Assembly (NCBI GenBank): GCA_001783525.1
Contig: MFMS01000002.1
Coordinates: 208,135 to 244,959 of the forward strand
DNA length: 36,825 nt
Direction: 5' to 3'
DNA from: Candidatus Kaiserbacteria bacterium RIFOXYB1_FULL_46_14
Lineage (GTDB): Bacteria > Patescibacteriota > Minisyncoccia > Phycocordibacterales > UBA918
Position 1 is the stretch's first letter. Every line of letters begins with the position of its first letter. Position numbers and translations under genes: made by a program. The notes beneath the pieces were generated by a model. The model was given only the letters and a program-made list of their open reading frames with translations, was not told the DNA's origin and did no database searches. Of the stretch, positions 109 through 17,706 are shown piece after piece.

Positions 109-1788
109 ATGCCATCTTTCACTTCGATCCGTACGCTAGTTGCCCAAAATTGGCAGGCTGGTTTGACCGTCGCTCTTATCTCAGTACCACTTTCAATCGC
201 ACTTTCGATCGCTTCTGGTGCCGGCCCACTACCAGGCTTGGTGACCGGTGTGGTCGCCACCTTAATCGCCGGCTTCTTTGGCGGTAGTCATTTCAACATC
301 ATCGGTGCGGCTGGAGCACTCGCCACTGTACTTTTTGCCGCCACCTTGGCCGCACCGGCGGGTCTCGGTGCCGCTGTACTACCTTTTATCGCCATCACCA
401 CCGGTCTCATTATTCTTTTGGTGTGGTTTTTTGAATTTGATCGCTATCTTTATTACATCCCTTCTTCGGTGATGTACGGTTTTGCCGCCGGCGTAGCTAT
501 ACTGATCGCCGCTTCACAACTATTTGACGCTTCTGGTCTTTCGGCACTATCTCGCACAGGCCACCTAACTGGAGACCTAGAGAAATTTGTGGAGCATTGG
601 GGTGATGTGCACTTGCCTTCTTTGGCTGTCTTCTCCGCTTTCTTGGTTGGTATCTTGGTCTTCAAGCGTTTTGTTAAGCGCGTACCGGCCGTAATTCCTG
701 CTGCTGTGATCGGCATTTTGGTTGGTTACTTCGCAGATTCTGCACTCGGACTCACCACGCTAGCTGATAAGTTTGGTGACTTTGAAGCAACACTCATCTT
801 GCCAGTTTCTTGGGCAGCATTAGACATCTTTCGAGAGTCAGCCGCCCTTATGTGGATCCTAAAAGTGTCGGGTATAGTGGCACTGATCGCCATTCTCGAA
901 ACCCTTATCACTGCCAAACTTGGCGACAAGCTCACCCGTACTGAGTCATCTTCAAGCCGTGAATTGCTTGGTTTGGCTCTTGCCAATATCGGCTCTGGTG
1001 CCGCCGGCGGCTTACCTGCAACCGGTGTATTCATCCGCACTGGTGCCAATATCAAAGCCGGTGCTACCCATCGCACTAGTGGAATCTTGACCGCCCTCTT
1101 TTCCGCATTGATCGCACTCCTAGTATTACCTTTCTTCTCTTACCTACCAATGCCAGTGATCGCCGCCGTCCTCACTAACACTGCCCTTGGACTACTTGAA
1201 CTTCATAAGTTTAAGGAATTTTATCAGCGTGAAATGGAGAGCTTCGGCATTGCCATACTGGTTGCTCTTATCACTATCTTCCACGATGCTGGACTAGGCG
1301 TAACAATTGGTGCGGTAACCGCTCTAGTTCTCTTTGCTCGCAAGATTGCTCGTGGCCGCTTCGATGTGGTCTGGAATTATAGCGATGGCACCAAAGAAGA
1401 TGTACGCAGTGAACGTCACATCTTGCTACCAAAAAACGATAAGTCAGTCAGAGCGGCCACTTATTCGATTGCTGGTAACCTCGGCTACATTGATGCTGAA
1501 CGACACCGACTCAATTTCAAGCGTTTGGCAGAAGCGAGCAACATCGACAACATTATCATCCGCTTGCGTGACCTCTTTTCTATCGACATCGAAGGCGTTG
1601 ATGCATTATCTGAGAGCGTAAGTGAACTACAACGACGCGGCAAAGGCGTGTACTTTGCTTCCGTATCTCCGACCATTCTCGATGAGTTGTTGGTAATACC
1701 TGCCTTTGCAGAACTAAGTAAGACTCATCACTTCAACCGCAAAACTTCAGACATCCTAAAGGAACTCGGTGTCGCCAACGATCATTAA
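109..1788 (+). CDS. SulP/SLC26 family inorganic anion transporter with C-terminal STAS domain
   Basis: AGLTVALISVPLSIALSIASG N-terminal motif, many TM helices, STAS-like C-terminus (IDIEGVDAL). Start moved to ATG 109 because the upstream extension runs through hairpins. Confidence 0.9.
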   Translation: MPSFTSIRTLVAQNWQAGLTVALISVPLSIALSIASGAGPLPGLVTGVVATLIAGFFGGSHFNIIGAAGALATVLFAATLAAPAGLGAAVLPFIAITTGLIILLVWFFEFDRYLYYIPSSVMYGFAAGVAILIAASQLFDASGLSALSRTGHLTGDLEKFVEHWGDVHLPSLAVFSAFLVGILVFKRFVKRVPAVIPAAVIGILVGYFADSALGLTTLADKFGDFEATLILPVSWAALDIFRESAALMWILKVSGIVALIAILETLITAKLGDKLTRTESSSSRELLGLALANIGSGAAGGLPATGVFIRTGANIKAGATHRTSGILTALFSALIALLVLPFFSYLPMPVIAAVLTNTALGLLELHKFKEFYQREMESFGIAILVALITIFHDAGLGVTIGAVTALVLFARKIARGRFDVVWNYSDGTKEDVRSERHILLPKNDKSVRAATYSIAGNLGYIDAERHRLNFKRLAEASNIDNIIIRLRDLFSIDIEGVDALSESVSELQRRGKGVYFASVSPTILDELLVIPAFAELSKTHHFNRKTSDILKELGVANDH

Positions 1789-2093
1789 TAAAACCGTCGT
1801 ACTAAACCGACGACCACACCCCACAATGACACCTCTTCTGAAGAGGTGTTTTTTGTAGAAAAATTCTCTACCTTCATCTGACCGTCTTCAATCAAAACAA
1901 CAACGTCGCCACCTTTTGCATTCACGGCCTTATCAACCACCAAAACATCCCCTTCCTCTATACCACTACCCTCTGGCCCACTCCCTTCCATTGTCATAAA
2001 AAATGTGGACGCTGGGTGTTTTACCAAATAGTCATGTATATCAAGCGGTCTGTCTTCCGTCCGCTCTTTCATCACATCAAAAACTTTTCCCAT
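1785..2093 (-). CDS. UmuD-like S24 peptidase-fold protein, apparently catalytically inactive
   Basis: LDIHDYLVKHPASTFF...GIEEGDVLVVDK...LWGVV aligns by eye to UmuD; likely start MGKVFD. Confidence 0.8.
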   Translation of the reverse strand: MGKVFDVMKERTEDRPLDIHDYLVKHPASTFFMTMEGSGPEGSGIEEGDVLVVDKAVNAKGGDVVVLIEDGQMKVENFSTKNTSSEEVSLWGVVVGLVRRFY

Positions 2094-2146
2094 ATAAATA
2101 AGGTTGATATTTGGACAAAATTCCATGTAGTCTAACTACGTGAAAC

Positions 2147-3153: not shown

Positions 3154-3780
3154 CTAGCCCTGATCGCTCTCCTTCTGGTCCCAGTGGAGAAACTTCGCAT
3201 AAACCACTAGATTGTGACTATAACTCCGATCACTATGGTCGAAGACGCCACCACAGGTGATTAAGCGAAGTTCTGAGCCGTCAACGTCTCCAAAGACCTT
3301 CTCAAATGGAAAACGCTTTTTTGAGTGGTAGCTCAGCCGATAGACCTCAAATACAGCGGTACTTCCATCTTCGCGACCTATCTCTATTAAGTCTCCATCC
3401 TTAATGTCTTTAAGTGGCTGAAAGACCTCTGGTCCTGTCTCCGAATCGACATGCCCAACAATCACTGACGGTCCAATCTCACCAGGTGTCGGACTATGTT
3501 TGTACCAAGCGACGGTATCAAAACCCTTTGGGACCTCCATTAAGCCTGTCGAGTCCAAATCAAGTGGTGTCTCAAATTCGGCCTCAATGCCGACCGCCAA
3601 GACTCGGATAAACACCGGCAAAGATGGCTCGACTGATCGAGATGTTTCTTCTGGATAATCGGTGCGACCAAACGCAAGACCTACCTGATCCAACCAGAAG
3701 TACGTACTCGAACCACCCATCAATACACCAAGTAGTAAAACAGCGATTGGTTTTCTGATCGGTCGCAGAAAACTGAACAT
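3154..3780 (-). CDS. Class F sortase
   Basis: N-terminal TM; PGEIGPSVIVGHVD (catalytic His); LRLITCGG (catalytic Cys); YSHNLVVYA. The ATG overlaps the upstream stop (TAATG). Confidence 0.9.
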   Translation of the reverse strand: MFSFLRPIRKPIAVLLLGVLMGGSSTYFWLDQVGLAFGRTDYPEETSRSVEPSLPVFIRVLAVGIEAEFETPLDLDSTGLMEVPKGFDTVAWYKHSPTPGEIGPSVIVGHVDSETGPEVFQPLKDIKDGDLIEIGREDGSTAVFEVYRLSYHSKKRFPFEKVFGDVDGSELRLITCGGVFDHSDRSYSHNLVVYAKFLHWDQKESDQG

Positions 3781-5162
3781 TAGAAGCCTAACCAGGCGAA
3801 GATTGGCCATAACCATGACAGAGCGCTAGATAACCGTGGTGCAGCCCCTCCTCTACCAGCCTCGAGTGCTCCGGTAGGAACCGCAGTTATTTGCTCTCCC
3901 AAGATCTTAGGAGTACCACCACCATTACTACTTCCACCGCTACCACCTCCACTACTTCCACCTCCACTACCACCACCATCTCCGTTACCCCCGTTACCTC
4001 CACCATTCCCACCGCCGCCGAAGAAATTACCGAAATTGAACCCTGAATATGTTTCTACAATGGCTGCGTACGCGGTCGGTATGAACCAATTTTTGAGATT
4101 GCCGAGCCAAGTAACTGTTTCGTTACCTTCTTCATTCCTTGGTACAGTGACGGTATAGCTCTGCGGTGAGCTCGGAAAAGATTGTAACCAGTTGCTCCAG
4201 ACACTCTCTGACAAGACCCAAGTTCCCGCTTCTACGACGAACGAGTAATATCCGGTAGCATCGGTCGAAGTGGTGGCAGTCGTAACACCATCAGTAATCG
4301 TCACTATCCATCCTTCTAGTGGATCTTCGCCCTCTGGCCATAAACCGTCTTGATTAGCATCGTGCCATACGTAACCTTCGATGCGGTACTCTCTGGTACT
4401 GGTGCCGTTTCCGCCACCATTACCATCATTGAATGTGTTGGTTATGGTACAAGTTTCAGTTTCATCCTTGATTAGGACAATGTCAGTGCAGTTATCATAA
4501 CTGACGGCAAAGTCGCTCGGTACACTATCCTCTACGACGTTATATGTTCCAACTTCCACCGTCATGTCGTTGGTTCCATCCGATTCGAACGCCGTTGTGC
4601 TGGCACCATTTACATTAAAGGAGAACGAATCTGGAGCTGTGCTAGTACCAACAACAAGCTTCACGACCTTGAGAGTCGCCATATCTACACCACCGCCGCC
4701 TCCTGCTTCGGGACGATATTGATTATCTGCTTCACATGGGAGCGGGGAGTTAAATTGGCCAAGATCGCTTTCTTGGATCTCGATCATGGCTAGGTATTCA
4801 TTATTAGGATCAGGATTACAACCAGAACCATACCAACCTACTCGCCAATCCGATTTCACGAGTCCGTCTGGAACTATCTCCTCGACAGTATAAGTACCTG
4901 GCTCGAGCGCTACGACACTGTCGTGAGGCACGGTCTCGTTAAAATTAACGCCAATGATCTTAAAACTAAAATCGCTTTCTGTGTAACCTTGACTGTCGCC
5001 GCTGAATTTTTTATAGACATGAACATCGACAGTGGTCGGCGTATCTCCAATCGTCTGAGCTGATACCGTAGGCAATGGGATCGGAAGTAAAAATACGCAA
5101 ATTGCTAACGTTAGCAATAAAGTGGTCGGCCAAAAGATACTTGGGCGAAATAGTGCTTTCAT
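3780..5162 (-). CDS. Secreted surface protein with prealbumin-like and SdrD B-like domains; probable class F sortase substrate
   Basis: Signal peptide; GYVWHDANQDG...TDATGYYSF SdrD-B motif; Gly-rich linker; C-terminal VPTGALEAGRGG plus hydrophobic tail. Confidence 0.8.
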   Translation of the reverse strand: MKALFRPSIFWPTTLLLTLAICVFLLPIPLPTVSAQTIGDTPTTVDVHVYKKFSGDSQGYTESDFSFKIIGVNFNETVPHDSVVALEPGTYTVEEIVPDGLVKSDWRVGWYGSGCNPDPNNEYLAMIEIQESDLGQFNSPLPCEADNQYRPEAGGGGGVDMATLKVVKLVVGTSTAPDSFSFNVNGASTTAFESDGTNDMTVEVGTYNVVEDSVPSDFAVSYDNCTDIVLIKDETETCTITNTFNDGNGGGNGTSTREYRIEGYVWHDANQDGLWPEGEDPLEGWIVTITDGVTTATTSTDATGYYSFVVEAGTWVLSESVWSNWLQSFPSSPQSYTVTVPRNEEGNETVTWLGNLKNWFIPTAYAAIVETYSGFNFGNFFGGGGNGGGNGGNGDGGGSGGGSSGGGSGGSSNGGGTPKILGEQITAVPTGALEAGRGGAAPRLSSALSWLWPIFAWLGF

Positions 5163-5297: not shown

Positions 5298-8200
5298 CTA
5301 ATGGAACCATCCAAATACTTTTTTTACAACGGAACCAACACCACTCTGGGCTGCTGGGGCTGGCTGTTGAGCGGTCTCGGTCTTCGGCTCCGATACCGGA
5401 GTCGGTGTAGGAGCCACCGGCTGCTTCGGTACAGGCGGAGCAATAGACTTCACGACGACTGGTGTGGTTGGAGTGATCGGCTTGGCGACGATTGGCGTAG
5501 CGACGACGGATGCACTAGCTTTCGAGACAAAACCCGGAGTAGCAAAAGTATAATCACCACCCGTAGAAGTATTGCCCGAACCTGAGGAACGAATCCTGTA
5601 AGTGTACTCTGTCGCTGGCTTGAGATCGAGCAGGAACATATAGTGTTTGGTCTTCAAAAATGGCATATGAGCACTGGCTCGGTCGTAACCCAAGTTTTTT
5701 GCTAGTTGATCGTAAGGAGAAACTCCATTGTTTTCACTGAAGAAGATCTGGCCATCGGTCGGCTTGCTTGTCTCCCAAGTCAATACGGCAACATATAGAC
5801 CGTTCGTATGTTGATAAGTACCCAAGAGACCAACGTTCCGTATTCCTATATCCACTCCCTTTATTTCCAAGGTGTGCTTTGCAACCGGTATACGAAGTTC
5901 TTTGGTTTTCTTCCCAACAGTTGAACTCGCTGCGTTGTATGCGATCACCTTTGCTTGATTGGTGTAAGAACCAGTCGGAGTATCGGCCTTGTAATTGATC
6001 GTATAAGTAAGTGTAATGACCTCGCCAGGCAAAACATTGCCCAAATTCCAGCTTTGTTCACTCACGACCGTACCTATCGGATTAAGCAGGGTATCTATTA
6101 CTTGAGCATCGTAGGCAGTACCGCCGCGATTCTTAACAGTAAGAACATAATCGACAGAGTCACCGGCATTTACCGTCTTACTGATCGGTAGCACAGTGTT
6201 TTTGTAGATTCGAATGTCCGGTGCAGCATCTGCTTTAACTTTACTCGTCTCTCGCTCGATACTGGCGCCAAGCACTTTGCCAGCATTTTTGTTATTACTC
6301 GAAGAACTTCCCCCACCGCCCCCACCTCCACCCCCACCTCCACCTCCACCGCCAGTATTAGTACCACCATTGTCAGTGCCGTTTCCTTGCTCATCTCCGG
6401 AACCACTATTGCCACCATTACCAGTACCGGAATCAGTACCACCATTGTCGGTTGGAGCCGCGCGATAAATCGAAATACTTAAACGCTCGGTATTATCAGC
6501 TCGATTGCCATCCGACTGCGTACTGCGCACGTTAGCCCTAGCAGTTATCGTCGTCGTACCAATCGGCACAATCTCCTCTACGATACCCTCAAAGACGATT
6601 GTCTTACTTCCTCCAGCTGGAATATCGCCAATTGAAGCGGTTTCCAAATTATTTGCGGCCAATCCACCGACAAGGTGATACATATATTCCGAGTCGAACT
6701 CATGATCAAATTGAACATTGCGCGCCTCTAGATCGCCGTTGTTCTTGATCGTGTAAGTATAGATGACCTTACTACCAGGACTGATCGTATCGCTATCAGC
6801 CTGCAACTGACCACCAACCCAAAGATCAGGTGCTCCAAAAGAAATGTCACCATTAAAATCACCGAAGATATTCAGTACTGCCATCACCCAGTTGCGTCCA
6901 ACCACGTTCGTGTTGGCGATATTCATGACGTTTGCGCCAGCATAAGCATCGCCTGTCTCGATCACACCAAGCTCGGCGTCGATCAAGTTTTCACCAGTGA
7001 GTGAGACAATATCGACTTTGTTATTGATCGTACTGGTTGACTGATTATTGAAATTGGCCTCGTAGGAATCGACATCACAATATCTACTACCGCACATCAA
7101 AAGCTCTGATGGCGTCACTTCAGCATCACTATTGTAGATAACCACCCCTTCTGGAGTGACTTCCCACGATAGTCCCTGAGGTAGTCCATAGACGTTTCCG
7201 TTCCAGTTGCCGTGTACTTTTATTAACATGTACATCGAATCGCCGCCGAAGAAATTTTGATTGACCTTATTGAGAACATTTGAGGCGGCTTCCGCGATAC
7301 CAGTGGAAGTGTAGGACTCCACTATATCGGTGAAAGCTTCATTGTTTCCAGACTCGGCGACAGTATCTAGTTCGTTGTTAATATCCGCATAGTTGACGTT
7401 ATTGTCGACCAATGAAGCGTCTTCAATATCTTCAAGTTGAACTAGAGCGTTTGGTTTGCCGAAGAAGGCGTACCAAAGATCTGCCGTAGGCAAGACAAGG
7501 TCTCCGTTTAGGGTACCCATACCGTTCACCGCCATGAGAATATAGTTTGAATCAATGATATTGGTATTGGCGACATTGATTATATTGGCCGCGCCGTAAG
7601 CATTACCGGTTTCGATGGCAGCAATCTCTCCTTCCGCTGAGTTGCCGCCGGTGATAGCGTATATATCGACATCATTGTCGATCACAGCCTCGTTCTGTTG
7701 CAAAAGATTGTAGATGACATCCTCTGCTGCACACGACAACAGAGAACACTGATTAGAAGCACTGACTAATGCATCTGGATTATTGAAAAAAAGTTCCCGT
7801 AGATCAAAGATACCTTCGTCTCCCAACATCTGATTGAGCAGTCTCATAAAACCGCTGGAGTTGATAACATTGGTATTCAACACGTTGGCGATATTGAGGA
7901 CTGACACTGCGTCGCCGGTCTCGATCGTGGCAGTATCGCTAGAAGATGCCAAGTTATCGCCAGTAATGGCGGTTGTAGTCCCCATATTGGTGATGATGCC
8001 GCTGTTGGTACCAGTAGCGTTGAGTTCGTAGGTGTCGAGATCATTCAAAGACGAAGTGGCAGTACTTTGAATATTATTCGAGTTAGCAGTAGTTGAGATG
8101 TCACCGGTCGCAGTAGCGTCGCCAGTCTTAATCGCGGTCGTAGTGCCGGATTCCACTTGTTGCCCGGTCACGTCTTCACCTTCGCTCTCACCACCCTCTT

Positions 8201-8435
8201 CGCCAGGAGTACCTGAAACACCCCCTTCTCCTCCTGTGCCTGGGTCGCCTTCGGTCGGCACGTTGTTTTCACTAATGACCTCTATGGCCTCGACTGGCGC
8301 TTCCGTTCCCTCGCCCTCTACTGGTTCTTCTGCATAGGTAAATAATGGGACTAAACTAAACAAGAGTGCCACGAGAGTCAACGCCGCGGCCAAATTTCGT
8401 GTCTTTTTGAGATCGTTAGAAAATAGCGAGAACAT
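5298..8435 (-). CDS. Large secreted protein: Asn-rich TGxN/TGDA repeats, two DUF11-like Ig domains, FN3-like domain, Pro/Thr-rich tail
   Basis: Signal peptide; four full repeats plus a half repeat; PGSKVIYTYTIKNNG and AGDSVDYVLTVKNRG (DUF11-like); LTWETSKP...LKPATEYTYRI (FN3-like). Confidence 0.75.
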   Translation of the reverse strand: MFSLFSNDLKKTRNLAAALTLVALLFSLVPLFTYAEEPVEGEGTEAPVEAIEVISENNVPTEGDPGTGGEGGVSGTPGEEGGESEGEDVTGQQVESGTTTAIKTGDATATGDISTTANSNNIQSTATSSLNDLDTYELNATGTNSGIITNMGTTTAITGDNLASSSDTATIETGDAVSVLNIANVLNTNVINSSGFMRLLNQMLGDEGIFDLRELFFNNPDALVSASNQCSLLSCAAEDVIYNLLQQNEAVIDNDVDIYAITGGNSAEGEIAAIETGNAYGAANIINVANTNIIDSNYILMAVNGMGTLNGDLVLPTADLWYAFFGKPNALVQLEDIEDASLVDNNVNYADINNELDTVAESGNNEAFTDIVESYTSTGIAEAASNVLNKVNQNFFGGDSMYMLIKVHGNWNGNVYGLPQGLSWEVTPEGVVIYNSDAEVTPSELLMCGSRYCDVDSYEANFNNQSTSTINNKVDIVSLTGENLIDAELGVIETGDAYAGANVMNIANTNVVGRNWVMAVLNIFGDFNGDISFGAPDLWVGGQLQADSDTISPGSKVIYTYTIKNNGDLEARNVQFDHEFDSEYMYHLVGGLAANNLETASIGDIPAGGSKTIVFEGIVEEIVPIGTTTITARANVRSTQSDGNRADNTERLSISIYRAAPTDNGGTDSGTGNGGNSGSGDEQGNGTDNGGTNTGGGGGGGGGGGGGGGSSSSNNKNAGKVLGASIERETSKVKADAAPDIRIYKNTVLPISKTVNAGDSVDYVLTVKNRGGTAYDAQVIDTLLNPIGTVVSEQSWNLGNVLPGEVITLTYTINYKADTPTGSYTNQAKVIAYNAASSTVGKKTKELRIPVAKHTLEIKGVDIGIRNVGLLGTYQHTNGLYVAVLTWETSKPTDGQIFFSENNGVSPYDQLAKNLGYDRASAHMPFLKTKHYMFLLDLKPATEYTYRIRSSGSGNTSTGGDYTFATPGFVSKASASVVATPIVAKPITPTTPVVVKSIAPPVPKQPVAPTPTPVSEPKTETAQQPAPAAQSGVGSVVKKVFGWFH

Positions 8436-8880
8436 AATTTAGGAAAATTAAACGTATCTTATCCAACAACGCTACTAATGTTTGTTGATCATCGAACGGA
8501 AGAGATGTACTCCCTACTTCCATTTTCGATTCGACCCAAGTGTCAGACTCGCTAGTGCCTGAAGCATGCCTGACAATATCCACCACAGTCTTACCGTCGA
8601 CACTGGCCTCTATCTTGACCGTCGAATCACTGTCTCCAGAAATATAAGACCTTCCATCTGCCCCATTCTTGCCAGACAAGCCATCTTGGCCGTCTTGGCC
8701 AGGTAGACCATCCTGACCGTCCTGGCCATCTTGACCACTAGACATAACACCCCCAGTGCTCGAGTGGGCGCTGACATAGTTTTCGATCCGCACCGTTTCG
8801 GCCCTTGCTTGGGTCAAAAGACCAAAAGATGCGACGAATACAATTGCGACGAAAAATAATATATGTTGAAAGCGTGACAT
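8416..8880 (-). CDS. Small secreted protein with collagen-like (GQD)n segment
   Basis: Signal peptide ending ARA; GQDGQDGQDGLPGQDGQDGLSGKNGADG; likely start MSRFQ; overlaps the next gene by 20 nt. Confidence 0.75.
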   Translation of the reverse strand: MSRFQHILFFVAIVFVASFGLLTQARAETVRIENYVSAHSSTGGVMSSGQDGQDGQDGLPGQDGQDGLSGKNGADGRSYISGDSDSTVKIEASVDGKTVVDIVRHASGTSESDTWVESKMEVGSTSLPFDDQQTLVALLDKIRLIFLNYVLAIF

Positions 8881-8958
8881 AGATTTCCCTCCATAAAGCC
8901 AGGAGAATCCCGGCCTTAAGGGAGGGGTTCTCCGAGGAGAACTCCCAACCCTCAACCT

Positions 8959-10056
8959 TTATCGACGAACGACTCGGGTCATATTGCGATTCACTACATT
9001 AGTGATCTCGCTCCAAGAATCTGAACGTCCAGTAGAGACCGTACCACCATTGCCGCCGTCGCCAGCGTCACCGCCGTGCCCGCCAGCGCCAGTGGTGCCG
9101 CCAGTGCCGCCGTGTCCGGAGGCACCTCCGTCGCCACCAGGACCAGTGGTGCCGCCAGTGCCACCAGTACCGCCGGTGCCACCAGACTGACTACCATCTA
9201 CTTCGTCTCCTCCAAGGGAGTTAGCGTCGCCGCCAGCGCCGCCATTGCCGCCGTCGCCAGCACCCTGAGTGTCACCACCAGGAGCGATATCTAAGCTAGT
9301 ACCGCCGTTGCCAGCGCCATTGCCGCCGTCGCCAGCGTTACCGCCTCTACCGCCATCCTCTCCATCTGAAGAGTTATTGCCGGTATCGGAAGCAGAGATA
9401 GCTGCATTTCCGAGTTCAACTTCATTCTCGTTTACAACCACAGCTGCGGTCTCATCAAGATCCGCATTACTGTTAGCATCACGGACGACATCAGTATCGT
9501 TATTGTTGATGTCATTATTGATTTCGGAGGTTGACACAGCTTCACCAGTGGTGATATTGCCACCAGCACCACCGTTACCACCCTCGCCACCGGAACCACC
9601 AGCGCCAGTAGAGCCGCCATTGCCGCCATTGCCAGAGTCGCCACCGTCGCCGCCAGCGCCAGTGTTGCCACCAACTCCAGCTGCGCCGCCATTGCCGCCG
9701 GTCTGAGTGCCATTATTACCGTCAACGTCGCCGGTAGCGTCGCCGCCAGCGCCGCCGTTGCCGCCGTCGCCAGCACCCTGAGTGTCACCACCAGGAGCGA
9801 TGTTGATACTGCTTCCGCCATCGCCGGCATTACTGCCGCCATCACCGGCATTACCACCGCGACCGCCACGACCTCCACGAGAAGCGTTGCCACCAGTCGA
9901 AGCGGAAGATACGGCCACATTCATAATACTGGCCGAATTACTGTTAGCTACTACCACCGTGTCGTTCTCATAAGCATTAGCTGGCATAGCAAACATGCCA
10001 AAGGCCAAAGCTGGAAGAACGAGTACAGCGGCTGTCCTGTTGATTATTGCTGTCAT
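8959..10056 (-). CDS. Secreted glycine-rich protein with two Asn-rich repeat units, each carrying a (GGx)n insert
   Basis: Start MTAIINR; signal peptide ending ANA; internal duplication with a 171-codon period. Confidence 0.85.
   Translation of the reverse strand: MTAIINRTAAVLVLPALAFGMFAMPANAYENDTVVVANSNSASIMNVAVSSASTGGNASRGGRGGRGGNAGDGGSNAGDGGSSINIAPGGDTQGAGDGGNGGAGGDATGDVDGNNGTQTGGNGGAAGVGGNTGAGGDGGDSGNGGNGGSTGAGGSGGEGGNGGAGGNITTGEAVSTSEINNDINNNDTDVVRDANSNADLDETAAVVVNENEVELGNAAISASDTGNNSSDGEDGGRGGNAGDGGNGAGNGGTSLDIAPGGDTQGAGDGGNGGAGGDANSLGGDEVDGSQSGGTGGTGGTGGTTGPGGDGGASGHGGTGGTTGAGGHGGDAGDGGNGGTVSTGRSDSWSEITNVVNRNMTRVVRR
9222..9801. repeat. 67-bp direct repeat (9222-9288 and 9735-9801, 1 mismatch) inside the glycine-rich gene
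   Basis: Both copies encode IAPGGDTQGAGDGGNGGAGGDA; offset 513 bp. Confidence 0.9.
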
Positions 10057-10260: not shown

Positions 10261-10298
10261 AAAAAAAACTGCTTTCGTGCGAATACGCACGAAAGCAG
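10261..10298 (-). terminator. Intrinsic terminator/attenuator in the leader of the glycine-rich gene
   Basis: Perfect 13-bp stem CTGCTTTCGTGCG/CGCACGAAAGCAG followed by T8 on the minus strand. Confidence 0.8.
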
Positions 10299-10384
10299 CT
10301 CTCACCCAAAACAAATATTCAAAACTGATGCGAGTAACATTCATAATACAAATGTCCTTCACTCGCTGGCCTCCAATTTATTTA

Positions 10385-10412
10385 ATAATACACCCCACCA
10401 AAAAGGGTGCAA
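10385..10412 (-). promoter_or_regulatory. Putative sigma70 promoter upstream of the attenuated leader
   Basis: Minus strand TTGCAC-N16-TATTAT. Confidence 0.45.
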
Positions 10413-10578
10413 TGAAAAATACGAAAAAATCTCACTGCGATACAAGAAGATCACCTGTCAATATATCAACTGGGGACATCGGCTTATTGTCCTTTGTCGA
10501 TAAACTGCTATACACTGTATTGATAAGCTCTTTAGCTCAAACCTCGATAGACCCTGTTAAAACCCGCCGTACCAAAAC

Positions 10579-10649
10579 TATTTTATTTGGTCGCGGAACG
10601 TCCAGTGTAAAAGCTGGTCTCCAATTTATTTCCGCGACCAAATAAAATA
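10579..10649. repeat. Perfect 20-bp inverted repeat with 31-bp spacer
   Basis: TATTTTATTTGGTCGCGGAA (10579-10598) and TTCCGCGACCAAATAAAATA (10630-10649). Confidence 0.9.
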
Positions 10650-10989
10650 ATTTTGAGTTCATGAACATGGTTGGTAGATAGATGATGACACTGTCTAATT
10701 TCATCTAGTAGCAAGTGTGACTAAAAACCAACGAAAGCAACACACATCAACAACCCCTCGCCGTCGCTAGTGTCAGCGGCAAGAATTCATACTTTGTAAT
10801 CACTTTCTGTAACTCTTGTTCTCGTCTGTAGATCTCGCCCATTTCAAGTGAGCAATGTTTTAAATGTCTAACAAGCGCCGCGTCATGTAGCCCTCGAATT
10901 TTTGCAGCGGTACTAGATCCTAATTTGCGTATGACGTTCGGTCAAGATATTCACACGACAAAAAGATGAATCAAGCTAAGTCTATACGA

Positions 10990-11017
10990 CGATCGCCGGC
11001 CATAAAGCCGGCGATCG
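10990..11017 (-). terminator. Hairpin downstream of the 1634-aa gene, possible terminator
   Basis: 11-bp stem CGATCGCCGGC/GCCGGCGATCG; no strong U tract. Confidence 0.45.
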
Positions 11018-11090
11018 GATATTCTTGAGGTAAGACACGGGGACAAATGCCGAGAATAATCCTCAACAATGGAAGCTGAAATTTCCCAAA

Positions 11091-14000
11091 TTACAGTACC
11101 GGCTTGGTTGGAGGAACCTCAAGACTATTGATGTAGTAGAGCAGGGCGGCACCGATGGTAGTGATCAGTGATGGCCAAAGTGCACACTCTGTACCTAGTA
11201 CGAAGTAGAAGATCAACCCGAGCAATCCTAGAATGCCGAAGATAAACGACACACTCATTACAGATACTGCTTCAGTGCTCCAACCCTTCCAGTAGTAAAC
11301 AGCGCCGCTTGCAATGATCCAAGTCAAGACCATAAGCCACCAGTACCAACACTCATCAATCCAATCTACCAGTGCAGCTACTGCTTTGGACGAAGAAGCG
11401 GTTTCTTCGGTCGAATCATCAACATCATTATCAGTCGAGGTGCTTTCACCTAATACCTTGCCGTCTGGACCAGTATCACCATCACCTTCTCCCGATCCAA
11501 AGTTGCCAGTTGATGCGCCAGCGACCTGTGGAGTAGCGCCAGTGCCGTCGATAGTTGTATCTCCGCCACCTACACCATCACCTCCTCCGTCACCACCGTT
11601 GTTGCCGTCACCGCCATTACCATCGCCATCTCCTCCGTTGTTGTCATTAGTGTTTCTTGAAGAAGAATTGTCTTCAGCAGTACCGAAGTCATAAGGGCCA
11701 GTATCGGATGATACAACACTTACGCTGTGGGAATGACCGATGTTGTCAGGATAAGTATAGTCCCAGTCGCTACCGATGTCGGCAATAACAGTCCAGCTAC
11801 CAGCTTCTACCTCGAAGGAGTAACGTCCGCTGGCGTCGGTAGTCGTAGCTACCGTTGTGGTTCCATTAGTAATCGAGATACTTACTCCAGCCCGATAATT
11901 TTCATCCTCATTTTTTACAGTGTCCTCATTTTCATCGCGCCAGACGAAGCCAAATACTTCGTAAGTCTCAGCATCAGGAATGTCCTCTTCACACATTACT
12001 CCATCACGAAGTGTTAGGGTTGCTCCATCATTACCAGTATCTGCACGCATATCAAACACTAGGCTTGAGGTGCTTGTGGTCTGGAAGACATCAACGAATC
12101 CTTGACCTGGGTTTTCCAACTTGAATCCAGTACCGTTGATCTCGCGTACAACATCGTCGTTTACAATGCTATCAAAACCCTGGAATGCGAGGTTGCCCTT
12201 TATGTAGTCAATCTGACCACTAGGATTTTCTCCCCTCCAGGCAAATTTCATCTTTGCGCCGTCGAAGTCGAGGGCTAGACCCTTGAAGCCAGCAGAAGCT
12301 AGGCTAACGGCTGAAGCCTCACCGATTTCATCGACACTGAACCAGTAACCATTCGGAGCGATCTTGTTGGAGTCTCCCAAGTAAACCTTGCCATTCCAAC
12401 TACCAGAAGCCTCGATGGTGTCATCAAGTGTAATCTTGACGAGCTTGTCTTCGTGACACTGGTTGGCAAGCTGACAAGAGGTGTTACAACCTTCGTCGCC
12501 AAGTTCACACTGTTCGTAACCATTTACCTCTTCGTCACCACAGTAGTTGATTGTTCCAGTATCAGGGTTACAGGTCAGAGATACGTTGTCGAGAAGAGCG
12601 CCGTAGCCATCAGAAGGAGTGGCGTCAGCAAACGTCACCTCTACATCATTTCCATCTCCAACGAAGCTGTATGTATGAGTCTCCCAATCAGTGTTGGTGT
12701 TGGCAGTACCATCTGCTTGATTTGAGGCCACTTCATCACCGTCAATGAAGACCTCCATCTGGTTGTTTCCTGTACTTAAACCTGGTCGTGGTGAGAAAGC
12801 CCAACTCAAAGTGTATTCTTTGTCTTCAATAGTAGGAATGGTCTGGATGAGACGAGTTGATTCATCACTATCGAGTTCTGCAAACTGTTCGCCATCAGCC
12901 GCAAGCCATCCGGAGTAACCTCGGATGATTTCCATCAACGCAGTGCCAGTATCGCCTGCTTTTTTAACTACCCAGTCAACCGGGTCAGAGATGTGTTCCC
13001 ACTGACCATCAATTGCTGGTTCTTCGAAGCTAGCGTTCGCAAGGAGGTTTGTCTCAGCGATACAAGATACGACAACTGGATTTTCTAGAGTGAACCAGCG
13101 AGACTCACGGAAATTTTCACCACCATCTTCAGTCGGATTGACCACTAAACAGTAGTCGCCGTCGCTCCAAGCACTCATGTCAATCGTTGTCGAGAAGTCA
13201 GCTCCATTCCAAGAGAAAGGAGTACTGAAGCCATCGACGTTACCTGCCACAGTATTGGTGTTGGCGCTACAAGTACCCGCGCGGATCGCCCATTGAACAG
13301 GGTCTAGGCTTACATCTGCATCAATATACTCAGCCAAGAAGGTATGTGATTCAGACAAGACTTCATAATCGGTGGCTGGATTGGTGATTACAAGACCAGG
13401 ATCTACTGGTTCTTCATCGGTATTGAAGATAGAGAAGTTCTCATTTTCTTCATTAACACTCACAACACCTTGTCCGTCTAGATGCCACCAACCGGCCTGC
13501 ATTACTTCGTCAGCCTCGTATTCACCATAAGGCACTCCTTCAAAAGTGACACAACCTTCTCCTGTTACTCCAGCATAACCTTCGTAAATAGAAACGTTGA
13601 GTGAACCAGAGTTGTCGTTGTACCAGCTAGGGATTGGGTCTGTGCCTGTACCGTCAAAGATTCTGAAGTTTACTGTGCCGTCAGCATCCGGAGTGAATGA
13701 AGTGGCATAAGTATGGTTGCTATTGTAAGAGCCCCATTCTACAAAGTCTTCAGCCACTTGAAGATCAAGAATATCTTCTCCGTAGCCAGTGAAGCCATCC
13801 ATCTGTGTAAGCCAATTGTCCTCAGTGGAGTACTCGGCATCTACATGATTATCAGGATTGCGATCGTTTAGCCAAACACCTGTCGCTACCGCGATATATG
13901 ATTTACCAGCTTCTAGTGAAGTCACTGTTGTAGTGCCCATTGCAGTATTTGCAGGGACAACCAGGTCTTCCACGTGCTCACCCTTCAACATCAAAGTCCA

Positions 14001-15995
14001 ACCGCCCATGGCAACTTCACTTTGATCGTACTTACACATTGTCACGTTCGAAGTAGGTTCAGGCTCGAAGTCGTAAGTGGTTGTGTGAATGTTGGAACCC
14101 TGATCGATACCAATTACAAATTTGTCCACACTACCATCAAAGCCAGCCCAAGAACCACCAGCCTTAAATATCATTGCCCCTTGAGTATCGACATCTTCCA
14201 AAGATTTTGCGCTGATACGCAAATCTGGATAATTATCATTTAATTCTTCCCATGTACACGGGTCTGACATGGTACACATTGATCCACCATTAGGACCTGC
14301 TATCCACCAGTTGCCTGTTCCTGATCCGGCGGAATCATTTAGTGCATCCCATTCCTGCCAAGTATCATCTTGAGTGGTCTGAGTGTAGTATGGTTCATAA
14401 ACAATACGTCCGTCAGCTTTTGCTGGATTAACGGGCGTGCCGTCCATATCTACATCGAACTGAAGCGCCAAAGCAAGCACTCCACCAGTAGGTTCCGTTC
14501 TGTATGTAGAATATTTGAGTTCAACTATATCACTTATGTTGAGTCCAGCTTCCAAATAGTGTCGAAGTTTTGTTCTTTCGTTTGAGGTCGGAGTGGTAAT
14601 GCGGGCGCTACCTTTGCCTAGCGGAGGAGTTGCCGGTCCAGCGACAATCTCACCTACTCCAGTCGTCCAAGTAGTGCGATCACTATTAAACTCCCAACCT
14701 TGCATAACACCAGGTGTTACTACAACTGTCTCCGAAGTCTCAGGATCTGATACATTCGACACAGATAGCGACATGTTGTCAAATAAGAAGCCCTTGTTGT
14801 CATTTGCTGGAACAGCTGAGCCACCGGCACGGAAAATAAGAGTATCTACTGGGAACAAAGCATTTCCATTACCACTCTGTTCTGCGTCATAGCGGTAATA
14901 ATCCTCCCAACTGGTGCCTGTGTGTGCAAGGGAGCCATCAATGTAAATCTTTACAATATCGTTGGCCGGACCATCTACAAAGTCCATTACAAACTTTATC
15001 GTGTGTGATTCATCACGATCGAGGGTGGCTATTTCTTGATCATTCCAAGAGGTTGTACCTGGTAGAGGACCAGCATTGGTCACGTCGTAAAAGACTACGT
15101 CGATACCATCTGAAGTGTCCGTAAAGCTTAAATAGCTCATTCGTGAACCATTGCCGTCATCGGGAGATACGGAAAGCGCAAGCCCTGACTGCAAGCCAGG
15201 CATAGTTGAGGCAATATCAAACTGCGCCTCAAAATGATTATTGGCGGCAACACTCGATTCGCCGGCTGTCGTCACAGTTGGAGCAGCGAATGTTTGATCT
15301 CCAAAAGCACCATTCGTAACGGCATTCGAGATGCGGAGTGACTTACAACCGAACTCAGTAAAACCATAGGTGTTCGGAACAACTTCCTGATCATAAGGGC
15401 CGGTTGCACTCCATGAGTTTTGGGCATTCACTGTACCGGTAGCGAAAGTGTCGAAGGTGGTCAACGACACATCATCTGTAGAGCTACACTCTGGTACCGA
15501 ACCATCTTCATACTGAAATGTATTGGTGAATATTTGTTCATCCGCAGGATTCACATAAGAGAATGAAGTAACCTCTGCGGATGAAGCGTCTGACAGAATA
15601 AATGTGTCGCCGCCAGCGCCATTGTTCCAGCCACCGGCGCCCCATTCATCGTCACAGTCCACCCCACCATTTAAGGTAGTGCTAGCGTTCGCGCATACCA
15701 CATAGGATTCACTGGGTGACAGCGTCGTAGATCCAAAAATATAAGAAAGGGATTGTCCATCATTTACTTCCCAACCCGTCAGATCAAGATTACCGACGCC
15801 AGTGTTTTGAATTTTGAACCACTCACCATTTCCGTCCCCAACGCCATTATCAGGATTTGGCATCAAACTGATCTCTCCAGTAAAAGTAGCGGCGTTGGCG
15901 ATTTGTGGCCAGACCGGAACCATGACCAAAACCAGAGCGATTATGGTCATAAATGAAAGAACACGGTTGAAGAAGTGAGCAGTGTGGGAATTCAT
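11091..15995 (-). CDS. Giant multidomain membrane-anchored adhesin-like protein (lamin-tail, lectin-like, DUF642-like, Cys-rich, SdrD B-like domains)
   Basis: Signal peptide; MPNP..GEWFKIQNTG..LDLTGW (lamin tail); NLLANASFEEP..AADGEQFAELDS (DUF642-like); CGDEEVNGYEQCE; GFVWRDENED..TDASGRYSF (SdrD-B); three C-terminal TM helices. Confidence 0.8.
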   Translation of the reverse strand: MNSHTAHFFNRVLSFMTIIALVLVMVPVWPQIANAATFTGEISLMPNPDNGVGDGNGEWFKIQNTGVGNLDLTGWEVNDGQSLSYIFGSTTLSPSESYVVCANASTTLNGGVDCDDEWGAGGWNNGAGGDTFILSDASSAEVTSFSYVNPADEQIFTNTFQYEDGSVPECSSTDDVSLTTFDTFATGTVNAQNSWSATGPYDQEVVPNTYGFTEFGCKSLRISNAVTNGAFGDQTFAAPTVTTAGESSVAANNHFEAQFDIASTMPGLQSGLALSVSPDDGNGSRMSYLSFTDTSDGIDVVFYDVTNAGPLPGTTSWNDQEIATLDRDESHTIKFVMDFVDGPANDIVKIYIDGSLAHTGTSWEDYYRYDAEQSGNGNALFPVDTLIFRAGGSAVPANDNKGFLFDNMSLSVSNVSDPETSETVVVTPGVMQGWEFNSDRTTWTTGVGEIVAGPATPPLGKGSARITTPTSNERTKLRHYLEAGLNISDIVELKYSTYRTEPTGGVLALALQFDVDMDGTPVNPAKADGRIVYEPYYTQTTQDDTWQEWDALNDSAGSGTGNWWIAGPNGGSMCTMSDPCTWEELNDNYPDLRISAKSLEDVDTQGAMIFKAGGSWAGFDGSVDKFVIGIDQGSNIHTTTYDFEPEPTSNVTMCKYDQSEVAMGGWTLMLKGEHVEDLVVPANTAMGTTTVTSLEAGKSYIAVATGVWLNDRNPDNHVDAEYSTEDNWLTQMDGFTGYGEDILDLQVAEDFVEWGSYNSNHTYATSFTPDADGTVNFRIFDGTGTDPIPSWYNDNSGSLNVSIYEGYAGVTGEGCVTFEGVPYGEYEADEVMQAGWWHLDGQGVVSVNEENENFSIFNTDEEPVDPGLVITNPATDYEVLSESHTFLAEYIDADVSLDPVQWAIRAGTCSANTNTVAGNVDGFSTPFSWNGADFSTTIDMSAWSDGDYCLVVNPTEDGGENFRESRWFTLENPVVVSCIAETNLLANASFEEPAIDGQWEHISDPVDWVVKKAGDTGTALMEIIRGYSGWLAADGEQFAELDSDESTRLIQTIPTIEDKEYTLSWAFSPRPGLSTGNNQMEVFIDGDEVASNQADGTANTNTDWETHTYSFVGDGNDVEVTFADATPSDGYGALLDNVSLTCNPDTGTINYCGDEEVNGYEQCELGDEGCNTSCQLANQCHEDKLVKITLDDTIEASGSWNGKVYLGDSNKIAPNGYWFSVDEIGEASAVSLASAGFKGLALDFDGAKMKFAWRGENPSGQIDYIKGNLAFQGFDSIVNDDVVREINGTGFKLENPGQGFVDVFQTTSTSSLVFDMRADTGNDGATLTLRDGVMCEEDIPDAETYEVFGFVWRDENEDTVKNEDENYRAGVSISITNGTTTVATTTDASGRYSFEVEAGSWTVIADIGSDWDYTYPDNIGHSHSVSVVSSDTGPYDFGTAEDNSSSRNTNDNNGGDGDGNGGDGNNGGDGGGDGVGGGDTTIDGTGATPQVAGASTGNFGSGEGDGDTGPDGKVLGESTSTDNDVDDSTEETASSSKAVAALVDWIDECWYWWLMVLTWIIASGAVYYWKGWSTEAVSVMSVSFIFGILGLLGLIFYFVLGTECALWPSLITTIGAALLYYINSLEVPPTKPVL

Positions 15996-16187: not shown

Positions 16188-17141
16188 CTACTCCTCTACA
16201 TCCGGTCTGGCTTTTTTGAAAACTGATAAGTTGTAGCAGACAGAAGATGTTTTTGAATTCTCGGTTGCTATCGCAATAGGTGGCAAAGCACGGTCTTGTT
16301 CATCGTCCTCCCTCTCTAGACGAGCTTCTCGAAACCTCTCCCTAGGCATTTTGACGTTTTCTATAAACTCGGCTCGGTCTTCACGCCATTCGCGGAGCCC
16401 TGGTGCATGGTCGAGGATCCATGGAAAGACAGCGCAGACGTAAAGTGCGTCTTCAGACAATTCGCTTGAAGTGGCGGCCAAAATGCGTACTTTTTCGCCG
16501 CTTTTTAGCAGTTTAATGTCGTGTTCACGCAGTTCTTCTGTATTGAGATGCCAAGACTCTCCGTCGGCGTCGATGAAGTCTAGAAAATCTTCTTTTTCAT
16601 TTATCTCCTCTACTACCTGCCCGACCAACCTTCCGGCAAGTGGCTTTTGCCACATTTCCTCTTCGAATTTTGCCCGTGACTGATAAGCCGGAACTGCTTT
16701 CCCTAACATTTGGTCCAAATACCAACCCGCACCGAGCCAGTGCAGTAAACCGCCTCCCAAAACGCTAAAACCAATACTACTACCGACCACCAACACTATT
16801 GGATAGCGATAACCGCGCTTAGTATGTCGTAAATTGAAGTAGGCGGCCGCTACCAGCAAGAAAAAGGTTACCAGCCAGAGGTATGGCAAGGCATCAAACA
16901 AGAAGGTTAGGAAATTGTCGTGCGCGGCTTCATATAGAGCGTATCCGATATGCAAAGATGCAAAAGAAGCCACTGAAAGAGCTAAAGCACCGCACAAAAC
17001 AGTAGCCCCCCAAGCTCCCCAAAGGGCATATTCGTGAGAAAGCCAATATAGGCGTGAGCGTGGCTCGATACCCTCCTTCTCCAGACGTGAAAGAATGGAC
17101 TCCTTCAGGTCATTATGTGGTTGTTTTTGTGTATCACTCAT
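16188..17141 (-). CDS. Membrane protein, putative anti-sigma factor
   Basis: Overlaps the ECF sigma gene by 8 nt; short basic N-terminus, 3 TM helices, extracytoplasmic domain. Confidence 0.6.
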   Translation of the reverse strand: MSDTQKQPHNDLKESILSRLEKEGIEPRSRLYWLSHEYALWGAWGATVLCGALALSVASFASLHIGYALYEAAHDNFLTFLFDALPYLWLVTFFLLVAAAYFNLRHTKRGYRYPIVLVVGSSIGFSVLGGGLLHWLGAGWYLDQMLGKAVPAYQSRAKFEEEMWQKPLAGRLVGQVVEEINEKEDFLDFIDADGESWHLNTEELREHDIKLLKSGEKVRILAATSSELSEDALYVCAVFPWILDHAPGLREWREDRAEFIENVKMPRERFREARLEREDDEQDRALPPIAIATENSKTSSVCYNLSVFKKARPDVEE

Positions 17142-17706
17142 ATTTTTTTAAAAGTTCACGGAGCTGTTTCTTAGCACGGTGAATAAAAGTCCCGACTGTT
17201 CCTAGCGGCAATTTAAGAACGTCGGAAATCTCTTCGTATTCTAAATGCTCAAAGTATCGAAGGATCAAGATGTCTCGGTATTTAGGATCAAGTTCTGCCA
17301 TTGCCCTTTGCAGATATTCAGCATTTATCTTTTGATCTAGACGTACCGAAGCATCTTCTTCGTCATTATTTAAAAAAGCCAACACCTCCTCACTATCTGC
17401 CACCAGATTGCCCTCTGGTCTTACTTTTTTCTTACGATACCAAGAAATCGCTTCGTTGTGCGCAATGCGATAAATCCAAGCTGAGAAGGAATAACTATCG
17501 TCGTAATCGTTTAGATTGCGATAGACCTTGATAAAAACCTCCTGTAACACATCATCGCGATCATCAGGGTCTCTGACCCCAAGACGAGTGACGTAGCGAG
17601 ACAACTTGCTTTGATAACGCTCGACGATATGGCCAAATAGCGCCCGCTCTTTGAGCGCTAGTTTTACCACCTCCTTATCCCCTAGCGATGTTATCTCTGC
17701 GACCAT
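17134..17706 (-). CDS. ECF-subfamily RNA polymerase sigma factor (SigW-like)
   Basis: DDVLQEVFIKVYRNL, FSAWIYRIAHN (region 2); LEYEEISDVLKLPLGTVGTFIHRAK (region 4). Confidence 0.93.
   Translation of the reverse strand: MVAEITSLGDKEVVKLALKERALFGHIVERYQSKLSRYVTRLGVRDPDDRDDVLQEVFIKVYRNLNDYDDSYSFSAWIYRIAHNEAISWYRKKKVRPEGNLVADSEEVLAFLNNDEEDASVRLDQKINAEYLQRAMAELDPKYRDILILRYFEHLEYEEISDVLKLPLGTVGTFIHRAKKQLRELLKKYE

Follow-up and report, generated by a model that had tools for sequence, protein, structure and literature searches.

A conserved three-gene cassette for secreted proteins built from one Asn-rich repeat unit in Patescibacteria

A repeat unit shared by three adjacent genes

A 36,825-nucleotide stretch of contig MFMS01000002.1 from Candidatus Kaiserbacteria bacterium RIFOXYB1_FULL_46_14 (the window; positions 208,135 to 244,959 of the forward strand), a tiny bacterium from groundwater, contains three adjacent genes, designated C, B and A in the order of transcription, that encode proteins of 365, 154 and 1045 amino acids (aa). 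The three genes form a real, specific and widely conserved cassette built from one repeat unit, and each product carries an export signal. The cassette is undescribed: no account of the C-B-A family was found in the literature on surface proteins of Patescibacteria, Parcubacteria and the Candidate Phyla Radiation (CPR), a search whose scope did not extend to supplements.

The common unit consists of a putative long strand of alternating Asn, Ala and Val that ends in TGxN, an insertion site, and a second stretch that runs from IxTGDA to NxVNxN. Two half-unit hidden Markov models (HMMs) were built from 27 C-family proteins only, without the use of A; h1 comprises the 25 residues that end in TGxN, and h2 the 25 residues from IxTGDA to NxVNxN. 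C contains two h1 and two h2 matches. A contains five h2 matches, with independent E-values (i-E) of 6e-7 to 0.02, at about residues 102-121, 170-191, 274-295, 377-394 and 491-512, together with one clear h1 match. When every stop-to-stop frame of 50 aa or more in the whole genome is scanned (4,878 frames), C and A alone are significant, the next best frame having an E-value of 0.24.

When the profiles of the C and A families are compared with each other, the match has a probability of 98.6% (E 1.3e-15), and the alignment places the whole Gly-rich stretch of C as one insertion between TGxNxA and IxTGDA. When a 63-sequence alignment of the A head is compared with itself, shifts by 1, 2 and 3 units match with E-values of 4e-48, 2e-33 and 6e-15; the head therefore consists of four tandem units of ~105 aa preceded by a half unit of h2 only. 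The alignment of proteins at the B position (51 sequences) matches the C family at 97.2% (E 4e-11), a score inflated by the signal peptide that the alignment also spans, and matches unit 3 of A at 83% (E 8e-6), split at the same site. The unit is covered by no Pfam or NCBIfam model in scans of A, B and C, and the precomputed Pfam lists of 120 A relatives name stalk domains only. These results uphold an initial annotation of the window, which had noted a shared unit in three adjacent open reading frames (ORFs): two copies in C, each with an insert of over 100 aa, four copies and a half unit ahead of Ig-like domains in A, and one degenerate copy in B with a collagen insert at the same site. For B, the agreement holds at the level of the family.

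Conservation across Patescibacteria

The A alignment was searched against one genome per species, which returned 237 relatives; 80 loci were kept, with flanks of up to 10 kb per side. All relatives found are metagenome-assembled genomes of Patescibacteria, labelled Kaiserbacteria, Paceibacterota, Parcubacteria and the like. A C-like small ORF (128-529 aa, median 261) with significant half-unit matches closely precedes the A-like gene, in the same orientation, in 74 of the 80 loci, and those without it mostly end close to the A gene (L031, L033, L073, L079). Loci L014, L030, L054 and L077 have two to three tandem C-like genes. The A ORF reaches 500 aa or more in 78 loci; in 52 of these, an ORF of 100-300 aa ends within 130 nt of the A start, and the removal of two reverse-frame artefacts leaves a B-position gene in 50. 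Co-occurrence of the three genes in relatives, named beforehand in the initial annotation as a test, is thus found.

The order C-B-A is fixed across A proteins as low as 34-40% identical, with a single copy per genome. The neighbouring genes recur rarely in the 80 loci (sortase in 8, the 460-aa protein in 10, the 1634-aa protein in 12, the CAP protein in 11 and the S24 peptidase in 3), so that C-B-A constitutes the core. A conserved gene of ~390 aa upstream of C in 12 loci, which we take to be TsaD from its N-terminal motif, was dropped as housekeeping; a homologue lies on contig C4 of the source genome.

In an even sample of 301 phylum genomes, about 23 have an A-head match and 20, the source genome included, have a C-type match, 13 of these 20 also with an A-head match; these counts are among the matches listed, and 48 matches lie outside them. 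Both matches are on the same contig in all 6 genomes checked. Neither was found in 16 sampled genomes of the source genome's own class. Small unit-bearing proteins also occur in six genomes without a detected A head (G005, G028, G054, G061, G063 and G106). A profile of the A head alone, searched against 1.84 billion, matches 3,024 representative clusters when the limit is E<=1e-3, and 1,222 when it is E<=1e-30.

Architecture and predicted structure of A

A is organized as a signal peptide, an acidic Gly/Glu linker, the unit domain, Ig-like domains, a Pro-rich spacer and a short hydrophobic tail. DUF11 membership is found in the stalk only, and not in the unit domain; a match to Pur_ac_phosph_N falls below its cut-off. 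Close relatives end in a short Gly-Phe-rich hydrophobic tail, and distant relatives in a transmembrane segment followed by basic residues, some of them with PG_binding_1. The base-like character that had been assigned to A agrees with this plan, in which the unit domain is distal and the C-terminus is a hydrophobic tail or, in relatives, a transmembrane anchor.

The AlphaFold2 (AF2) model of the A head, computed from a 43-sequence alignment, has a predicted local distance difference test score (pLDDT) of 89.4 and a predicted template modelling score (pTM) of 0.87, and is nearly all beta. Each unit repeats a strand of about 25 residues, followed by strands of about 10, 11, 3 and 10. In 43-63 homologues, the invariant columns occur at the same place in all four units; TGxN contributes its Gly and Asn, TGDA its Gly and NTN its Asn. 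In-register stacking with ladders of Asn, Thr and Gly would yield this pattern. The sole resemblances of the head in the PDB are all weak, below the meaningful level of the tool, and are led by the functional-amyloid fibrils FapC and CsgA. On the predicted model, this resemblance is a lead, and not proof, that the A units stack like fibril layers. The head is without a convincing structural neighbour and may represent a new beta-stack fold.

Gene C and its Gly-rich inserts

C consists of a signal peptide and two units, each split by a Gly-rich insert, with a basic C-terminus right after the last strand. The inserts are about 107-112 aa each, with 47-49% Gly, compared with a median of 41 aa (range 18-114) and 45% Gly in 100 inserts of C-like proteins. 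In C-like inserts, the probability of Gly after Gly is 0.66-0.67 at lag 3 as against 0.36-0.42 at lags 1, 2, 4 and 5. Over the two inserts of C and the 100 of its relatives, the conditional frequency of Gly is 0.58-0.67 at lags 3, 6 and 9, 0.36-0.46 at other lags, and 0.45-0.49 after shuffling. The inserts thus show Gly at every third residue, as in Gly-rich polyproline II (PPII) helix bundle domains, and this strict period suggests a folded element of PPII type.

Four relatives have C proteins of 364-365 aa that align with just one single-residue gap, located in the linker between the units, although their A proteins share only 49-75% identity. The inserts of these C proteins lack indels and equal the strands in conservation, which indicates that the inserts are probably folded elements and not free variable loops. 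The inserts had been described as interchangeable loops. Their length does differ between distant lineages (18-114 aa), but among close relatives they are conserved and free of indels.

The charges of the strand tails follow a regular pattern across 91-92 C-like proteins: the internal unit has an acidic tail (net -1.1), and the last unit a basic one (+2.7) in which one position is Arg in 94%. Successive units carry opposite charges at equivalent positions, which is compatible with salt bridges between them if they are stacked. One relative with three units has acidic, acidic and basic tails, so that the pattern tracks the C-terminus and is not a strict alternation. In 77 C-like proteins with an h2 match, the chain ends 1-2 residues past the last strand. 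Two h2 matches are found in 58 of 82 C-like ORFs, and one in 24. A 377-aa ORF in the phylum sample (G253:C1:170802-171926) contains four to five tandem unit matches and no A-type stalk; the unit family is therefore more diverse than the C-B-A trio.

For C, the AF2 model computed from a 27-sequence alignment is unusable (pLDDT 48, and 37-62 over the inserts), and the model in the ESM Atlas has a pLDDT of 0.42. Matches in the Atlas are unnamed CPR clusters only, one of them auto-named 'PE-PGRS'. Sequence searches of the PDB with A and with the C-family profile returned only noise from Gly linkers (artificial GGS) and single-chain antibody fragments. Four DNA contig sets gave fragmentary cover, with contigs broken at the Gly-rich repeats. 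A closed monomer had been named as an outcome that would speak against polymerization. This is partly the case for A, whose head is predicted as a self-contained domain.

Gene B

In B, a signal peptide is followed by a single degenerate unit, which a collagen-like insert divides, and then by a variable region and a C-terminal amphipathic or hydrophobic helix. The plan of the family is IxNxVSVSAxxGG, a variable insert, xAxVxIxTxVNGxxVED, a variable region and the C-terminal helix, which is of similar flavour to the C-terminal tails of A relatives. The insert of B lies at the same site as those of C; a collagen-like insert is present in the closest relatives only and absent in most others. It remains below the thresholds for Scl-type collagens (Pfam Collagen 23.3 bits, cut-off 27.2; NCBIfam SclB 27.5, cut-off 325). 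Because it is a run of GXY triplets, the inserts of B and C would both use the triplet code of PPII-type helices.

Proposed assembly and alternative explanations

We propose that the operon-like cassette encodes three Sec-exported paralogues of one beta-strand unit that would assemble at the cell surface. A would be the cell-anchored base, attached by its C-terminal hydrophobic tail (a transmembrane anchor in many relatives), with a Pro-rich spacer that would span the wall and Ig-like domains; this stalk would hold the distal stack of 4.5 units away from the cell. The head units would be stacked in register, their invariant Asn, Thr and Gly residues lined up as ladders. B, with one unit, and C, with two, would come from the same transcript, and because both have too few rungs for a stable stack alone, they may join the A head by unit-on-unit stacking, C perhaps also stacking on itself. 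This would put the triplet-periodic Gly-rich elements, collagen-like in B and (GGX)n in C and probably PPII-type helices, on the outside, where they may serve in surface contact or adhesion. We assign a probability of roughly 0.45 to the addition of B and C onto the A head and the resulting display of PPII-type elements. The weak point of the initial observation is B, which by itself has no significant match to the half-unit HMMs (i-E 6.7 and 2.1). Prediction of a complex of the A head with mature B, both with alignments and without controls, gave scores of 0.10 and 0.01 against a mark of 0.32, and constitutes evidence neither way.

A fibre or amyloid built from these proteins is plausible. 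Its specific form, a CPR-specific surface fibre of functional-amyloid type, appears doubtful to us: C would be the major subunit, a two-unit beta-solenoid that polymerizes head to tail into an Asn-ladder cross-beta filament, with the wall-anchored A head as template, B as one-unit adaptor or cap, and, on each rung, a folded polyglycine/PPII-type domain that faces outward for contact with a host or substrate. The two-unit subunit it calls for is the commonest C-like form; a polymer could carry the acidic (internal) and basic (terminal) tails in alternation; the abrupt end of C after its last strand would leave a free edge; some loci have tandem C-like genes; and the best PDB rows are fibrils. 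Against these stand the absence of the curli and TasA families described below, the acidic, acidic and basic tails of the three-unit relative, and the bulk of the insert, since ~107 aa per unit would crowd a 4.8-Å stack unless splayed out. Alternatively, there may be no co-assembly, and the unit may be only a stable beta-rich block, used in A as an adhesin head and in B and C as small secreted binders, with the genes adjacent through tandem duplication and co-regulation. The prediction of the A head as a complete domain, the unit-bearing small proteins in six genomes without a detected A head and the multi-unit 377-aa form are in line with such independent paralogues, as is the finding that natural Gly-rich PPII bundles can be binding modules, e.g. 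the tip of phage S16 gp38 (10.1101/2023.11.25.568672). We nevertheless find this explanation unlikely, because the order fixed at 34-40% A identity and the overlap of the B stop with the A start exceed duplication debris, and because a one-unit B would hardly fold alone if the unit is a stacking rung.

Secreted, beta-rich and edge-exposed proteins with an outward 'cap' insert might also form a two-dimensional surface layer or sheath in place of a fibre. The archaeal SH proteins combine a signal peptide with an amyloid-like core of two sheets and with cap domains that vary (PMC11576556). They are present in up to 40 copies (PMC11576556), as against one copy per genome here, and no sequence or fold match to sheath proteins occurs among the PDB resemblances, which makes a layer very improbable. 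A pilus assembled by the nearby sortase is scarcely credible. A class F sortase and a 460-aa protein of SpaA/SdrD-B type do lie downstream of A; however, an LPXTG-type or other C-terminal sorting signal is absent from A, B and C, whose C-termini were read directly, homologues of the sortase and of the 460-aa protein flank only 8 and 10 of the 80 loci, and a promoter-like site separates A from the 460-aa gene. Stacking of B and C on the A head is the reading that we prefer. An epibiotic lifestyle, also put forward in the initial annotation, would be suggested by one fact, the 632-kb genome of a member of Patescibacteria.

Relation to known systems

By analogy, the cassette would work most like the functional amyloids that combine a template with a subunit (CsgB/CsgA, FapB/FapC), of which it is not a member. 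Curli consist of the major subunit CsgA, the nucleator CsgB and the channel CsgG; no Curlin repeat (PF07012) was found in A, B or C at E<=0.1, nor in the whole source genome at E<=0.01, with a positive E. coli control. Fap fibres consist of FapC as major and FapB as minor subunit or nucleator; in the Pfam-A scan, the matches of A, B and C were confined to DUF11-type, collagen and Ig-like models and none was to this family, the Fap accession not having been looked up by name. The units of the cassette are also much longer (~105 aa in A), with large inserts inside the unit, and the base is a 1045-aa anchored multidomain protein. The envelope of Patescibacteria is presumably monoderm, so that an outer-membrane channel of FapF type is not expected. 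For TasA and camelysin, no match to Peptidase_M73 (PF12389) occurs in the genome, with a positive B. subtilis control. The S24-like protein at 1785-2126 is UmuD/LexA-like and no SipW-type signal peptidase.

A CsgG/HfaB-like lipoprotein of 289 aa with a lipobox is encoded outside the window, on the minus strand of another contig (in the region C3:8097-9961, equal to L085:1598-3462). Its Pfam CsgG match (32.6 bits) is above the cut-off and its NCBIfam HfaB match (E 3.5e-17) below it. The gene lies between two small secreted Asn/Gln/Thr-rich repeat proteins of 127 and 185 aa without a family, an order that presumably recalls hfaA-hfaB-hfaD of Caulobacter, and we take its neighbours, from their translations, to be SecD, SecF and FolD. 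As a secretion partner of the cassette it was rejected, being on the other contig; CsgG is found in 3 of the 301 phylum genomes, compared with about 23 with an A head (among the matches listed). This rarity implies either horizontal acquisition or a mis-binned contig.

The prion HET-s has two pseudo-repeats per subunit joined by a linker, Asn ladders, and opposite charges that pair between rungs. C resembles it in its two repeats, in its putative Asn ladders and in the opposite charges on successive unit tails. HET-s is, however, a cytoplasmic fungal prion domain of ~70 aa without homology to the cassette, whose proteins are secreted and have far longer strands, with a Gly-rich insert that splits each repeat. 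Natural Gly-rich PPII bundles include the snow flea antifreeze protein, the N-domain of Obg and gp38, which forms the receptor-binding tip of the tail fibre in phage S16 (10.1101/2023.11.25.568672). The C inserts share with these bundles the (GGX)n composition and the strict 3-residue Gly period, a likeness by composition and periodicity only, and the GXY insert of B is of the related triple-helix motif of collagen type. The example of gp38 indicates that a PPII bundle can serve as the outward-facing binding tip of a fibre (10.1101/2023.11.25.568672). Pam pili (PamA/PamB) are described as Ig-like pilins joined by donor-strand exchange, mainly in Saccharimonadia and Microgenomatia (PMC13278184). 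These extracellular filaments resemble the cassette in being specific to CPR, in having lacked an annotation before and in being encoded by a conserved operon of their own (PMC13278184); the cassette differs in its Asn-rich, presumably stacked units and its occurrence in Paceibacteria-type genomes.

Patescibacteria account for a large share of bacterial diversity, and little is known of how most of those outside Saccharibacteria build their surfaces or contact hosts. The cassette is retained in a 632-kb genome, where little is dispensable, and provides a small set of testable targets, namely the 365-aa C for amyloid-like fibres and the 450-aa A head for a possible new beta-stack fold. The Gly-rich insert would add one more to the few PPII-bundle domains known from nature. 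Should the units co-assemble, they would represent a simple, genetically encoded template-plus-subunit system in a monoderm, without outer-membrane machinery. Were the fibre to prove true, ultra-small monoderm bacteria would have their first functional-amyloid-like system, and a beta-solenoid core would for the first time be seen combined with PPII-bundle decorations.

Genomic surroundings

The source genome comprises 632,575 bp and is 98% complete. All genes of the region are on the minus strand, and the order of transcription is 1634-aa protein, C, B, A, 460-aa protein, class F sortase, CAP-domain protein and S24 peptidase. The B stop overlaps the A start by 20 nt. The terminator-like hairpin upstream of C, with which a gap of about 900 bp after the 1634-aa gene ends, would separate C-B-A from the preceding gene.

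Table 1. Positions in the window of the genes, their parts and nearby features.
Feature	Position	Strand	Basis or remark
Gene C, 365 aa	8959..10056	-	ORF
C unit 1 first half, h1, residues 36-59, ends TGGN	9880..9951	-	i-E 2.2e-7
C insert 1, residues 60-166, 47-49% Gly, 3-residue Gly period	9559..9879	-	Composition/periodicity
C unit 1 second half, h2, residues 167-190, acidic tail	9487..9558	-	i-E 7.4e-8
C unit 2 first half, h1, residues 207-231	9364..9438	-	i-E 3.7e-4
C insert 2, residues 232-338, homologous to insert 1	9043..9363	-	Composition/periodicity
C unit 2 second half, h2, residues 339-362, basic tail, 3 residues before stop	8971..9042	-	i-E 6.4e-11
Gene B, 154 aa	8416..8880	-	ORF
B unit first half, residues 30-44	8749..8793	-	Family alignment; not significant alone
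B collagen-like insert, 10 GXY triplets, residues 49-78	8647..8736	-	Pfam Collagen, sub-threshold
B unit second half, residues 79-97	8590..8646	-	Family alignment
B C-terminal hydrophobic/amphipathic tail, residues 135-154	8419..8478	-	Conserved in kind across B family
Gene A, 1045 aa	5298..8435	-	ORF
A head domain, residues 95-545, half unit and four tandem ~105-aa units	6801..8153	-	HMMs, self-comparison, AF2
A leading half unit, h2 only, residues about 99-122	8070..8141	-	
A unit 1, residues about 133-203	7827..8039	-	
A unit 2, residues about 237-315	7491..7727	-	
A unit 3, residues about 340-435	7131..7418	-	
A unit 4, residues about 457-533	6837..7067	-	
A DUF11 (PF01345) domain, residues 545-652, two stretches	6480..6803	-	52.1 bits, cut-off 24.6
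A DUF7507-like Ig-type domain, residues 738-840	5916..6224	-	25.1 bits, below cut-off 27
A Pro-rich spacer and C-terminal hydrophobic tail, residues about 985-1045	5301..5483	-	
1634-aa LTD / choice-of-anchor-C surface protein	11091-15995	-	Upstream of C
Terminator-like hairpin, 18-bp stem and T run	10264..10303	-	Upstream of C; consensus scan only
Promoter-like site	5281-5253		Between A and 460-aa gene; consensus scan
UmuD/LexA-like S24 peptidase	1785-2126	-	Downstream block
[VI][LA]G[AE][ST] motif in A, residues about 727-733	6210-6260		
[VI][LA]G[AE][ST] motif in 460-aa protein	3900-3960		
[VI][LA]G[AE][ST] motif in 1634-aa protein	about 11330-11400		

The intergenic stretch 10304-11090 (about 790 bp), which is bounded by the hairpin at 10303-10264, is without a long minus-strand ORF and contains a direct repeat of ~20 nt in two copies, near 10385 and 10630; it may hold a small RNA or a small protein. 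Downstream of A, the 460-aa SpaA/SdrD-B protein (3154-5162 together with the sortase) has AVPTGA near its C-terminus and, after it, a final hydrophobic tail that lacks basic residues, and its gene is overlapped by the class F sortase gene directly downstream (NCBIfam 164.4 bits, cut-off 166). The two look like a substrate-sortase pair with a non-canonical xPTG signal.

A gene for an ECF-type (extracytoplasmic function) sigma factor with Sigma70_r2 and r4_2 overlaps that of a 317-aa protein without a family (16188-17706), which is a possible anti-sigma candidate. Both genes immediately precede that of the 1634-aa surface protein, an arrangement that suggests regulation of the surface-protein block by envelope stress. 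A short motif, [VI][LA]G[AE][ST] (KVLGAS, KILGEQ, QVAGAS), recurs after Gly-rich linkers in three large surface proteins encoded in the window. It occurs in 30 of 120 A-family proteins as against 7 of 120 shuffled controls, mostly just ahead of the Pro-rich C-terminal part, and may be a processing or sorting site. Finally, a 375-aa protein at 34100-35227 has a sub-threshold bactofilin match (23.4 bits, cut-off 27.9) and is a further candidate for a beta-helical polymer-type protein, unrelated to the C-B-A cassette.

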